Part shown: one piece after another, positions 20,001 to 26,000 of the stretch
How positions within the stretch are numbered: position 1 is the first letter of the stretch
Layout: every line of letters starts with the position of its first letter
From: a virus
Lineage: Duplodnaviria; Heunggongvirae; Uroviricota; Caudoviricetes
Strand: one strand, 5' to 3'
Length of the DNA: 26,548 bases
Virus record (IMG/VR): IMGVR_UViG_2681813161_000008
Program-made: the position numbers

Positions 20001-23000
20001 CAGGGGGAAAATGGCGATATTGGTCCCCTGCGCCCGTTCACCATTAATTTGCGGACGGGTGAAATATCCATGTCGCATAAAGTGTCTGTTGGCGGTGGTT
20101 CGCAGGTCAATGGTGCGCTGGGTATCGGCGTTCAGAACGCCCTGGGGGGGAATTCAATTGTTCTTGGTGATAATGACACCGGATTTAAACAGAATGGAGA
20201 CGGTATTCTGGATGTTTATGCTAATAGTCAGCGTGTATTCCGCTTTCAGAATGGAGTGGCTATTGCTTTTAAGAATATTCAGGCCGGAACTGCCAGAAAA
20301 TTCACGTTATCCAGCGCCAACAACTCCACGAAAAATGCAGCGTTTTATTTGTGGGGTAATCCATCCAGGTCTGTTGTTGCAGAGCTTGGCGATGATTCAG
20401 GCTGGCATTTTTTCAGCCAGAGGAATACAGATAACAGCATCACGTTCGCCGTAAACGGACAGGTAATTCCGTTAAATTACGGAAACTTCGATGCCCGCTA
20501 TAAATATCGAACAGAGGGGGTACAGGATGTACGGTATGGCCATGAAATGTATTACAGCCCCGGCAGTAACACCGTTTCGTGGAGATTTCGCGCACCTTCG
20601 GGACACGGGCTGTCAGGGATAGCGATATCGGATACCGGCCGTGACTCAGCGGATAACGTCAACGGCGTGTATTACCGCCCGCTTCAGAAACTGATTAATG
20701 GCACCTGGTATAACGTGGCGAGTGTTTAACAATGTTGCATATTAAAAAATATTACTGCGGGCAATCCGAAAACCGTGGAACAATATCAGCTGACAAAACA
20801 ATATGATGTCACCTGGCTTTTTTCGAAAGACGGAAAAAACTGGTATGAAGAGCTGAAGAATTTCGCCAGCGACACAATTAAAATAACTTACACCGGAGAC
20901 GGTCGCGTGGTGTGGGTCGGTAAGGATGTGACTGGCATTGAACCCCGTAACGCCAGTGTTATTGAAGTTCCTGATATTACCGCCAACCGCCGCATTACCG
21001 CGCCGGGTTACTGGTTTTACCGCAATGATGAATTTGTCTTTGACTACAGACTCAAAGCGGAAGATGAGCGTGATGCCCTTCTGGCTCAGGTCAGTGCCCG
21101 GACAGGGGAATGGGAAGAAGACCTGCTGCTGGGGCTAATCAGCGACGAAGACCGGGAAAAACTGAAAGCGTACCGCATTTACGCGAAATCGCTGCAGGCG
21201 ATGGATTTCAGTGTCATCACTGATAAAACCTCATACAACGCCATTGAATGGCCCGCCTCTCCGGAAATTTCTTCCTGATTTAATTTATCGCGAGAAAAAC
21301 TATGTCTGTAGTGATATCAGGTGCGCTGACTGATGGCGCAGGTATCCCCATGTCCGGATACCATATTATTCTGAAATCCCGGGTAAACACCCCGGAAGTG
21401 GTGATGCACACTGTTGCTGATGTGATGACAGGAAACGATGGTGAATACTGTTTCCATGCGCGGACTGGAAAATATGGTGTGTATCTGAAACCGGGCTGGC
21501 ACAACGAGTACAACGTTGGCGACATTGCTGTATATGAGGACTCAATGAGGTGTACTGGCAATAGCGGACACTACCATTTGTTCTTTTTTTAAGCAGCCAT
21601 CTGATGATATTTTTCCCTGAAGGCTGCCGGGGAGATATTCCCCAGACGAGAGTGACGACGCTGACGATTGTAGAAAATCTCAATGTATTCCCGTATTACT
21701 GAGATGGCTTCATCCCGGTTATTAAAACGATAGTGGCTCAGGCTCTCATTTTTCAGCGTTCCCCAGAAGCTTTCCATCGGAGCGTTGTCGTAACAGTGAC
21801 CTTTACGCGACATTGATGTTTTCAGACCAGACTGCTCCTGTATGACCCGGTAATCGTATGCGCAGTACTGTGAACCTCGATCAGAGTGGTGGATTAGCCC
21901 GGCAGGTGGGCGCTGGCTCCTGAGCGCCATAAACAGGGCTTTACCTGTCAGCTCTTTTGTCATGCGCTCTCCCATGGCGTAGCCGACAATTTCGCACGTA
22001 TAAACATCTTTGATGCCAGCGAGGTACAACCATCCCTCCTGTGTGGCAACATACGTCAGGTCCGCCACCCAGACCTGATTTGGTGCTGTAGGAGCGAACG
22101 TCTGGTTCAGCAGATTTGGCGCAACTGGCAGATTGTGGTTCGGGTTCGTAGTCGCTCTGAACTTGCGTTTCTGCTTACAGCGTAGCCTTAGCTCCTTACG
22201 AAGACGTGCCAGTCGGTCACGACCAACGATGATGCCATTCTCTGCCAGCTCCGTCTGGAGCCGCCGGGTTCCATATGTTTCGCGAGTGCGGATATGTGCC
22301 ACCTTAATCTCCAGTTTTAGCCGCTCATCACTTTGTTTTCTGTCTGAGGGTTCATGCTGTACCCAGTTGTAATAACCGCTCCTGGATACACCAAATACCT
22401 GACACATCGCTTCAATGGGAAATTGTTGTCGCCATTGTTCGATTAACGCGTATTTTTCAGCGACTCCTGTGCAAAATACGCTGTTGCTTTTTTAATATAT
22501 CTCGCTCAAGGCGAGCTTCATTTAACGCCTTACGCAGTTGCAGAATTTCAGATTCCAGTTCAGCCACCGTGCGGGAACCAGGAGTACCGAGCCCTTTTCT
22601 GGCGGCGGTAACCCATTGTCCTAAAGTGCCTTCAGGAAGGGATAATCGGGAAGCGCCTTCACTGATCGAAAGTTGATTTTCAAGAACCGTTCTGACAGCT
22701 TCGGCTTTGAACTCTTTAGAGTAACGTTGGTTTTTTCTGCTCATTATTAGCTCCTTCTGATGCCATTCTATTTCAGGAAGGAGTGTCCGTTAAACTCAGG
22801 CTACCTCACAAAGCCCGGCACGCTGAATGACTTTCTGATTGCTCCTGATGAGGGCGACCTGAAACCGGATGTCGTCAAACGCTTTGAGGAAATGGTGGTG
22901 CAGGCGCAGCAGAGCGCCGGGGCCGCAGCCGGAAACGCACAGCAGACGGCGCAGGATGTGGCGGCAGCCGCAACGGCCCGTGATGATGCACAACGTTTTG

Positions 23001-26000
23001 CGGAGAATGCCAGACAGGATGCAACCGTCACAGCTGAGGACAGAAAGGCCACTGCGGAAGATGTGACAAGCACAGGAGCAAATGCAGCCGCAGCCGGACA
23101 GAGCGCACAGGATGCCGCAGGTTATGCCCGCGCAGCAGAACAGGCCAAAAATGACATTGATGCTGCGCTGACCGGCACTCTGAAAATGGCTAACCATCTG
23201 TCAGAAATCGCAGCAGCAGGCGAAAAGGCACAACAGAAGTCCCGGGATAATCTGGGGCTGAAAAGTGCGGCCACGATGGAAGCACAGAGCGACATTTACG
23301 ACCGGACAAAAGGCCGTCTGGCGATACCCGGCGCATTCGGCTTTGGGTGTGCTTTTCTGCCTGAAGATGTTATCCGTTTTGACACTAAGAGTGATTTCCT
23401 GGCCTGGGTAAGGAATGCGCTGCCAGGTGAATATTCCGTTGCTGGCCCCTACGACATCATCATACCCGACACACGGTTTGAAGGGGTGCTCAGCATCCGG
23501 TGGACTGATGCACGCCCTGAGACAACAGAACCGCGGTACAGAGCCAAATCCCTTACTTTTTACGGCATTAACGGCCCCATTTATCACACCCGCTACTGCT
23601 ACTGGCCCATATCCAGACTGACTGGCTGGGTGAAAATAAATATAACCACAGAAGATATTATTTACAGAATCGTGGCGAGCTCTGTCCGCAACAGATGGGG
23701 AGACCCTGACATTGGCGGGCTGATTATTGCTGCGTACCAGGGAGAAGCTGACGGTGATAAAGTCATCAGACTTGTCAGGGGGCAGTCATACAGAGGCTCA
23801 CGACTGGGACCGGTGGGGATTTCAGTGCCCAGTACTCCCACCGGAACGTATATAGCATCCCCACAATTTTTCATTACGGGATGTTCAGAGCATTCATTAC
23901 CGGGGTCATATTGCGCCCTGTCCGGGGGGCCGGATGCACATGTCTCTGGCGCAATGCCCGGGCTTTTTATTCGCACATCGTGAGGAATGCACCGTGGAAA
24001 TTAAAAAAATCATTAATCCCCGTTATACCGAAAGTGGCGCAGTAGACTGTGACGTTTTTTTTGACGACAGGGACCAGGCAGTCCCCTACACAGCCACCGC
24101 TGATGATGTCGCTCCGACGGGTCAGCAAATCTGGCAGGAACTGCAAAGCGGCAAATGGGGTGAGATAGCCCCATTCACTGTGACACCAGAAATGCTGGAA
24201 GCGGCCAGAGAGGCCAGACGTCAGGAAATTGAAGCATGGCGCGCAGAACAGGAGGCGAAGCCGTTCACGTTTGAATGGAACGGTCGTATCTGGAATGCTG
24301 GTCCCGACTCACTGGGCCGCCTGTCCCCGGTAGTCATGCTGGCAAAATCTGTCACAGCACAAACACATATGGCGTGGAGCGATGCCGATAATCAGCAGGT
24401 GAAACTGTCGATGCCGGAACTGGAAGAACTGGCGGCAGCAATGGTGCAGGCGCAGGTCGATCGCAACGATGAGATTTATCGCCGTCAGCGTGAAATGAAA
24501 GAGGAGCTGAGCGGTCTGGATGATTTGGCTTCAATTCGGGCGTTTGACGTTGAGTAATGAATAAGCCGCAACTGGCGGAATCACAGAAGACCGCTTTGCT
24601 TACCGAAGCGGAGTCTGTCATCCGGCCGCGGGGGCGTGCTGTCAGGCTGAACAGGGAAACGGATGAATCCGGGGAGGCCCGGGGGCGGGCCTCTGTTTTT
24701 CCGGAGTCAGTCCGGTCTGTGGTTTATGCGATGTGATTATGAATGGTGCAGTTGTGAGCCGTTTTCAGGCAATCGCAGGGCCAGTACCTCGTCAGTCAGC
24801 TGACGGTAAATCTGCTGTTCAGTCTCACGCATCACCTGTGCACCGGCTTCCCTCTCCGCATCCGCATCACCGCTCAGACCTGATGCTTTCAGCCGGTCAG
24901 CCACCCTCTGAGGGTACTCATTCTCCAGCATCTCATATTTCTGCTCTTCTGCCAGCGCCCAGCGGTCAGCTTCCGTACGCTTCAGTACAGCATGCCATGG
25001 TCCCCAGAGGGAGAACCAGTCCGTAAATTCATTCTCTTCACGGCTTCTGACCATGGCTTCGGCAGTGCGGAGGTCATTTGCTGTCACTCCCGACACGCCA
25101 TAGAAACGCATTTCCTTCACGGCAGTGGAGAGCTGAAGTTTCTCTGCGAGCATGGTCTGGAAGGCCAGGTAGACTTCTATCTCGTCCACAAAATGGAGAG
25201 TTCTGACTTTATCCCGGGCAATGTCCTCCAGAATTTCGAGGCGGAACATTTCCCTGCCCAGGGAGAGCAGAGCGCCGGTATCATTATCGAAAAGGCCTTC
25301 TGATGCCTGATGGACCAGGAGGGTTTTCCGGAGATTGTTCCATGTGAGCGCGACACGGTCCTCACAGCTCTCAGTGGCATCAGCAGCAACAGTGAAAGAC
25401 TGCTGTCGAAGCTCCGCAGAGGCACTGAGTTTTTCCAGCCATGCAGCGACCTGTTCACGGAATCCGGAGGTATTGCGTGCAGAGACGGTATCGGAAAGGC
25501 GGTCAAGGAACGCGGAGAATGCCCGGGAATTCTCCTCGGTGGAAAAAGAAGTCCATTGTGTAGAAACCTCCCGACGATCTGCTTCAGGAAACCAGGCTGC
25601 CACAGTTTCGGGAAGAGGGGGGATCTGAAAGTTCTGCCCCCCTTCAGTGATGACTCTGATATGGCGCGAATGTAAATTTTGCGGCAACATCTGGCGTAAA
25701 AACAGTCTGTTTTGGTCTGACAGGGAAATACGAAACTGAGGCCCGTTAAAATTTGGAACCGAAGTTTGCTGTATTAAGAATAGCAGAGTTTGATCTGATA
25801 AGGGGTTATTTGCAATCTCAATAGTTATATGAGGATCTAAACGAAAAAGATTTGTCGGGATTGTAGTTATTTGGTTGTTTTCAAAATAAAAAAATCTTCT
25901 CATGATAATATTTTCTTGGATGTTTGGTAAGTTGCTTAATCTATTGCTATATGCAAAAAGAAGTTGCAGTCTCCTAGGTAAAGGGGGCAGTTCAGTAAGA

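Follow-up and report, generated by a model that had tools for sequence, protein, structure and literature searches.

An IS600 insertion splits a phiP27 L56-type tail fibre gene in an ipaH prophage remnant

The interrupted gene

The DNA analysed here, IMG/VR record IMGVR_UViG_2681813161_000008 (Caudoviricetes), is a stretch of 26,548 nt that is called the window throughout, and the view taken is of these 26.5 kb. It carries a tail fibre gene whose two parts lie on either side of a copy of IS600, an insertion sequence (IS) of the IS3 family. The components of the site are the following.

21302..21545, plus strand: 5' fragment of a Stf-N-type tail fibre gene, codons 1-81 and one base of codon 82 (its first); codes for the larger part of the N-terminal docking domain
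21543..21545: left copy of the target-site duplication, CAA
21546..22808, minus strand: IS600 (IS3 family), 1263 bp, with TG...CA ends, imperfect terminal inverted repeats and the transposase on the minus strand
21589-22407, minus strand: orfB of IS600 (rve DDE transposase, HTH_21; Pfam), 272 amino acids
22457-22744, minus strand: orfA of IS600 (HTH_Tnp_1; Pfam), 95 amino acids
22809..22811: right copy of the target-site duplication, CAA
22812..23983, plus strand: 3' fragment of the same gene, the rest of codon 82 to codon 471 and the stop; codes for the helical, Ala-rich shaft and the beta-rich distal domain

By identity, by its terminal repeats and by a 3-bp target-site duplication, the interval 21546-22808 is an IS600 element. 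It aligns over its full length, at 99.8-99.9% identity, with plasmid copies of 1264 bp annotated as 'IS3-like element IS600 family transposase', and two further IS600 copies of the window contain segments 100% identical to it. The left end begins with TGAGGTG at 21546 (TGAGGTGTACTGGC) and the right end closes with CCTCA at 22808 (GGCTACCTCA); between these ends (TGAGGT.../...ACCTCA) 23 of the first 40 positions are equal, among them positions 1-6 and the block GGACACT. The run of A residues at the site of programmed -1 frameshifting between orfA and orfB counts six (A6) against the canonical seven (A7), hence 1263 against 1264 bp, and orfA is shortened to 95 amino acids from the 100 that A7 gives. 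The same A6 is seen in the window copy at 6836-8098, and so in two of the three full copies, as well as in the copies of two Shigella loci described below (L003 and L005), both of which display further homopolymer losses.

Residues 1-131 of the rejoined fibre protein match PF08400, 'prophage tail fibre N-terminal', with an E value of 3.4e-67 and 225 bits against a domain cutoff of 26.6 bits, and residues 1-92 match, at the level of sequence, the chain named 'tail fiber protein' in PDB entry 9e7m (E 3.9e-15). The lambda Stf-like N-terminus claimed in the initial annotation is therefore genuine, and the Ala/Gln-rich shaft claimed there stands as an Ala-rich one, residues 93-235 being 28% Ala and 9% Gln and predicted to be helical. 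The whole protein matches phrog_2636, 'tail fiber protein', with an E value of 4.6e-221. IS600 landed at codon 81/82, inside the conserved motif VYEDSxPGTLNDFL, the link between docking domain and shaft. Judged by its sequence, the split gene is the second, Stf-N-type tail fibre gene of a phiP27-like tail module, with a docking domain in common with Stf; yet it is not a Stf orthologue, because its distal part and its downstream partner gene differ.

As it stands today, the 5' fragment runs into IS600 and stops at 21592, giving a chimeric open reading frame (ORF) of 96 amino acids, and the 3' fragment is part of a hybrid ORF of 407 amino acids whose ATG lies at 22760 within the IS600 end. Around that end no plus-strand promoter-like site reading out into the 3' fragment was found, the sole promoter-like site there being on the minus strand and directed inward. 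The N-terminal domain is cut off from the shaft and distal domain, and no full-length fibre is predicted to be producible.

Frame restoration and the empty site

The claim that IS600 interrupts this gene cleanly and that its 471 codons can be rebuilt proved correct in every particular. Joining 21302-21545 to 22812-23983 yields 1416 nt, that is 471 codons and a stop, with no internal stop and with the junction ...IAVYEDS-K-PGTLNDFL...; the two CAA repeats are found at 21543-21545 and 22809-22811. A 3-bp repeat has by itself a chance of 1/64. However, BLAST segments on either side of IS600 overlap by exactly CAA, and a single CAA occupies the empty site in each of two Escherichia coli references with an uninterrupted allele, strain FDAARGOS_944 (L001) and strain RMDEC465 (L002). 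The sequence of the in-silico join, GTATATGAGGACTCAAAGCCCGGC, is base for base equal to the uninterrupted site in both. Under simple insertion the sequence expected at the empty site in a close relative carrying the remnant beside pgl is GACTCAAAGCCC, and the k-mers that mark the filled junctions are GTATATGAGGACTCAATGAGGTGTACTGGC and CAGGCTACCTCACAAAGCCCGGCACGC. Insertion, duplication, exact restoration of the frame and an empty site in relatives are all present, and there is no evidence that contradicts the insertion itself.

In a search with the joined sequence, 10 E. coli genomes proved to have the gene uninterrupted (at a coverage of at least 80%). The intact allele encodes 422 amino acids in L001 and 470 in L002, and the 5' and 3' fragments of the window are 98.4% and 99.4% identical in nucleotides to one and the same intact allele, that of L001. 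Identity to L001 steps from 92% to 98% at the tfa/stf boundary and not at IS600. An in-frame difference of 147 bp (49 codons) within the Ala-rich shaft separates the 471/470-residue alleles from those of 421-423 residues; it lies at about 22973-23113 in the window (9405/9400 in L001), between the similar motifs QDVAAAA and QDAAG, and is consistent with slippage or recombination in a repetitive shaft. In the phage collection, at the level of megablast, no record has the full fibre gene, and the first 368 nt alone match phiP27 and one other phage. Two intact S. boydii alleles (P0008 and P0011) were considered as the state before insertion and rejected, for they belong to a paralogous remnant that lies beside ABC-3/ZnuA genes and not at pgl.

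Distribution and age of the insertion

The insertion had been described as recent, a description at odds with its occurrence, in identical form, in at least 8 Shigella loci and on 28 contigs. The contigs, named Shigella boydii or Shigella, were those on which the 96-residue chimeric product is recorded. Eight Shigella loci with the insertion (L003-L010) were fetched for comparison, and both junctions are present in seven of them (L003-L009), the eighth (L010) having the left junction only, at the end of its contig. Most loci with the insertion diverge from the window by no more than 0.1%, and the last 10.3 kb of the window (16241-26548) are 99.96% identical to CP026811. Four of the loci (L006-L009) have since lost a further 242 bp, corresponding to window 23840-24081, from the last part of the fibre gene into the beginning of the DUF4376 gene behind it. 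Because identical junctions occur in several Shigella loci and contigs, the insertion would be older than the divergence of many sequenced strains, and decay has gone on in some of them. It is young only in the sense that the fragments in the window remain undamaged.

One apparent sharer of the insertion, strain Sb227, was dropped: the 399/414-residue cluster members that suggested it, ABB66661 among them, are paralogs with a different PF08400-type N-terminus. Around the site such paralogs read VYEDSTDGSLNDFL.

The locus in CP026731 (L003) is rearranged. In its stretch 13431-20291, a methyltransferase-like ORF, a Tfa fragment, DinI and a LytS/LytTR pair follow a broken ipaH and replace pgl/ybhD. 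Its sequence would fit a rearrangement that arose, possibly, by recombination between ipaH prophages.

The surrounding remnant

The split gene lies between a gene for tail fibre assembly and one for a DUF4376 protein, with an effector gene at the window's end.

20733..21278, plus strand: tail fibre assembly gene (Caudo_TAP, Tfa) of the first fibre; PF02413, E 1.3e-25; phrog_136, E 8e-52; 74% amino acid identity to phiP27 L55
23994..24557, plus strand: DUF4376 gene; PF14301, E 2.2e-16; phrog_1141, E 8.6e-89; 74% amino acid identity to phiP27 L57
24737..26548, minus strand: gene of an ipaH-family type III secretion system effector E3 ligase, running off the end of the window; NEL and LRR_TTSS domains; 99.6% identical to the annotated ipaHb in L001

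The tfa gene stands directly upstream of the split gene and belongs to the first fibre gene, at 19344-20729. The DUF4376 protein, by its position, may be a partner or chaperone of the fibre. Its mechanically called ORF starts at the ATG of 23934 and has 50 nt in common with the fibre gene, just as in the RefSeq annotation of L001 and L002; the true start is probably 23994, because homology to phiP27 L57 begins at the GTG there and a GAGGA precedes it at 23982-23986. The ipaH gene is cargo at the prophage end and accompanies the fibre module.

IS DNA makes up about 12.7 kb of the 26.5-kb window (about 48%) and consists of the following elements.

1-754 and 3371-4139: IS1, two copies
1035-2298, 6836-8098 and 21546-22808: IS600, three full copies
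about 4100-5245: IS3-family element
9378-11955: fourth copy of IS600, in the opposite orientation, split by an IS629-like element
15367-17872: IS66-like element, three ORFs
about 17873-19003: IS2

The insert in the fourth IS600 copy is an IS3-family element of about 1.3 kb with ORFs of 108 and 296 amino acids, and it is called IS629-like from these ORF sizes alone. The IS66-like element shares about 91% identity with IS66-family copies on plasmids, of which some are annotated as ISEc23, and adjoins IS2; in one of the fetched loci (L004) it is tandemly duplicated. The IS600 copy at 1035-2298 is flanked by ...TCTGCC and ATCTTC..., with no matching duplication, and the copy at 6836 by TAG on both sides; the unmatched flanks suggest a deletion or rearrangement mediated by the IS.

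What remains of the phage itself is modest. Among regulators the window retains cII-like, repressor-like and Rha-like genes, and among structural genes an SLT 'lytic tail protein', a Dit-like gene, a baseplate plug, a truncated wedge, the first fibre with its Tfa and the split fibre, together with DUF4376 and ipaH. The SLT gene (12316-14336), a single ORF of 673 amino acids in L003 and L006, lacks one G of a run at 13355 in the window (GGGGG to GGGG) and is thereby broken into ORFs of 348 and 329 amino acids. None of the ORF families found in the window is for head, packaging, lysis, sheath or tube. The IS66-like element and IS2 fill the interval from the plug gene to the truncated Phage_Wedge1 gene, the expected place of baseplate genes, and these have apparently been replaced by them; all the loci sharing the insertion that extend far enough carry this lesion also. 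Listing the lost baseplate genes from the L001 backbone failed, the SLT and baseplate proteins of L001 having no tblastn match in the window: the two backbones differ, and the module from fibre to ipaH is alone common to both. The site is the pgl/ybhD locus, as read from the downstream context in L004 and L001. The element is an ipaH prophage remnant without a working phage.

A module on several backbones

The block formed by the C-terminus of the first fibre, Tfa, the Stf-N fibre, DUF4376 and the cargo is 92-99% identical in nucleotides across unrelated prophage backbones (window 20106-26548; L001 7806-12849; L002 7845-12918). The L001 backbone is a baseplate-J/DUF2612 myovirus-type prophage at pgl, and that of L002 a lambdoid gpJ/Lom/Stf prophage near yecD/aspS. 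As cargo the window, L001 and L002 all have ipaH, and a paralogous Shigella remnant (L013-L015) has ABC-3/ZnuA transporter genes. E. coli genomes with the module have up to eight matching places each, and the fibre ORF is intact in several otherwise dead remnants.

From these observations one could argue that the fibre/DUF4376 pair is a portable cargo cassette, moving by recombination between unrelated backbones, whose fibre has been co-opted by the host or is needed for mobilisation or regulation of the cargo, with IS600 as a natural knock-out. This is quite improbable. Were co-option true, a lineage-fixed IS600 insertion would mean loss of a fibre function and not neutral decay.

Origin and significance of the insertion

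Almost certainly, IS600 transposed into a phiP27 L56-type fibre gene in an ancestor, as part of the neutral decay of a dead ipaH prophage. A copy of IS600 would have entered codon 81/82, at the boundary of docking domain and shaft, by standard IS3-family transposition, creating the 3-bp CAA duplication as it did so. The event would fall in the ancestor of a Shigella boydii-type lineage, from which many sequenced strains would have inherited the insertion. The same remnant would have been struck by IS1, by other copies of IS600 and by IS629-like, IS66-like and IS2 elements, with the loss of most morphogenesis genes, and the insertion would be one step of this neutral decay, presumably without phenotypic consequence; both its selective neutrality and its place among the other lesions are read from the present state of the remnant.

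A few considerations weigh against this account. Given its A6 run, the IS600 copy in the fibre gene may no longer be transposition-competent; the A6 could equally be a homopolymer error of sequencing or consensus, because a G run in the SLT gene of the window is likewise one base short and comparable losses are seen in L003 and L005. Phage genes missing from the window could in principle lie elsewhere after rearrangement. Likewise, the prophage may have been functional still when IS600 landed.

The last of these considerations is the substance of the strongest alternative, namely that the insertion was a consequential knock-out by which an active prophage lost a working host-range determinant, the other lesions coming later. 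The reconstructed frame of 471 codons is free of other stops and frameshifts, an enteroinvasive E. coli (L001) has this fibre intact at the same locus, and phiP27, with the same L54-L57 layout, is deposited as a complete phage genome, all of which speak for it. Against this, the presence of the IS66-like/IS2 baseplate lesion in every sharing locus long enough to reveal it means that no strain separates the two events. Further, intactness of a fibre ORF is not tied to viability of a phage: the first fibre of L001 is annotated as a pseudogene while its Stf-N fibre is intact, and intact copies survive in other dead remnants too. A functional loss of this kind is accordingly unlikely, though far from negligible. 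The original proposal that IS600 inactivates a host-range determinant of the prophage can be kept only in part. The gene is disrupted, but it lies in an IS-riddled remnant with no host range left to lose, because head, packaging, lysis, sheath and tube genes are not found in the window, the baseplate is apparently replaced and the SLT gene is frameshifted.

A second alternative holds that the halves were never one gene and were brought together by recombination between IS600 copies of different prophages, so that the element is a scar. The genome has several paralogous fibre/DUF4376 modules and many identical copies of IS600, the unmatched flanks of the copy at 1035-2298 (GCC and ATC) point to IS-mediated rearrangement in the region, and the L003 locus has been joined to another downstream context. 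Nevertheless, a matching CAA stands on each side of the element, every base of the join agrees with the empty site in L001 and L002, one intact allele is 98-99% identical to both halves and shows no break of identity at IS600, and the paralogs with the other N-terminus differ at the site. A join of different alleles through IS recombination is excluded on these grounds, and the alternative, very improbable, is essentially refuted. That an assembler merely misplaced the IS copy is hardly conceivable, for although the homopolymer length differences of the window are typical of long-read consensus errors, the same junctions with their precise 3-bp duplication recur in at least 8 independent assemblies, draft short-read and complete alike.

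Transposition of IS600 into an intact gene thus remains the preferred origin, and what it represents is routine IS-driven pseudogenisation, one of hundreds of such insertions in Shigella, with no new mechanism. The insertion is already present in public annotated genomes and departs neither from known IS600 behaviour nor from known prophage decay; the locus is a textbook pair of filled and empty IS sites, and knowledge of Shigella decay, of IS600 and of tail fibres is unchanged by it. Its practical uses are two. Public annotations name both fragments as separate 'prophage tail fiber N-terminal domain-containing' proteins, and the ORFs of 96 and 407 amino acids should be annotated instead as one IS600-disrupted pseudogene. 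Similarly, the shared IS600 junction is a possible lineage marker for S. boydii-type strains, by polymerase chain reaction or with ISMapper.

Comparison with known systems

The closest counterpart is L56 of the Stx2e phage phiP27, which aligns end to end with the reconstructed fibre at 47% identity (E 2e-123) and is thus a full-length homologue. In phiP27 the order is L54 (fibre), L55 (Tfa), L56, L57 and attR, and by tblastn the window keeps the order L54-L57. The first 368 nt of the L56 gene are 85% identical to the fibre gene of the window, whereas the distal half of L56 is only about 40% identical to the window fibre, and receptor specificity probably differs between the two. Downstream of the module comes ipaH in the window and a small ORF with attR in phiP27, and the tail and baseplate backbone of the window (SLT, Dit-like, Pam3_gp18, Phage_Wedge1) is of another type than that of phiP27.

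The likeness to Stf of phage lambda is confined to the N-terminus. Over the first 121 residues orf-401 is 42% identical to the window fibre (BLASTP, E 1e-25), the VYEDSxPGTLNDFL motif included, and an Ala-rich shaft comes next, but past residue 121 or so there is no significant similarity, and the distal domains are not shared. Lambda Stf is also much longer (orf-401 and orf-314, split in the reference record) than the 471 residues in the window, and it is followed by a Caudo_TAP Tfa, where the window fibre is followed instead by DUF4376/phrog_1141, which is not PF02413. The backbone of the window is not lambdoid, yet the same module stands behind gpJ/Lom/Stf in the lambdoid prophage of L002.

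IS600 is one of five IS that have expanded across all Shigella species; on Shigella reference chromosomes there are 229-348 IS insertions and no fewer than 199 pseudogenes, and IS have inactivated hundreds of genes in the lineage (PMC7373316). The window copy fits IS600 as it occurs in Shigella and enteroinvasive E. coli in its TG...CA ends, its orfA with HTH_Tnp_1 and orfB with rve, the A run at their overlap and the 3-bp duplication, and departs from it by A6.

Most phage-borne effector genes are located past the tail fibre genes, beside the attachment site (PMC3530523). The lambdoid prophages of enterohaemorrhagic E. coli Sakai and the Gifsy phages have effector cargo in this place, and in the window ipaH comes right after the fibre/DUF4376 pair, on the opposite strand. 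Unlike in the Sakai and Gifsy cases, the cargo here is ipaH, and the prophage that carries it is a remnant.

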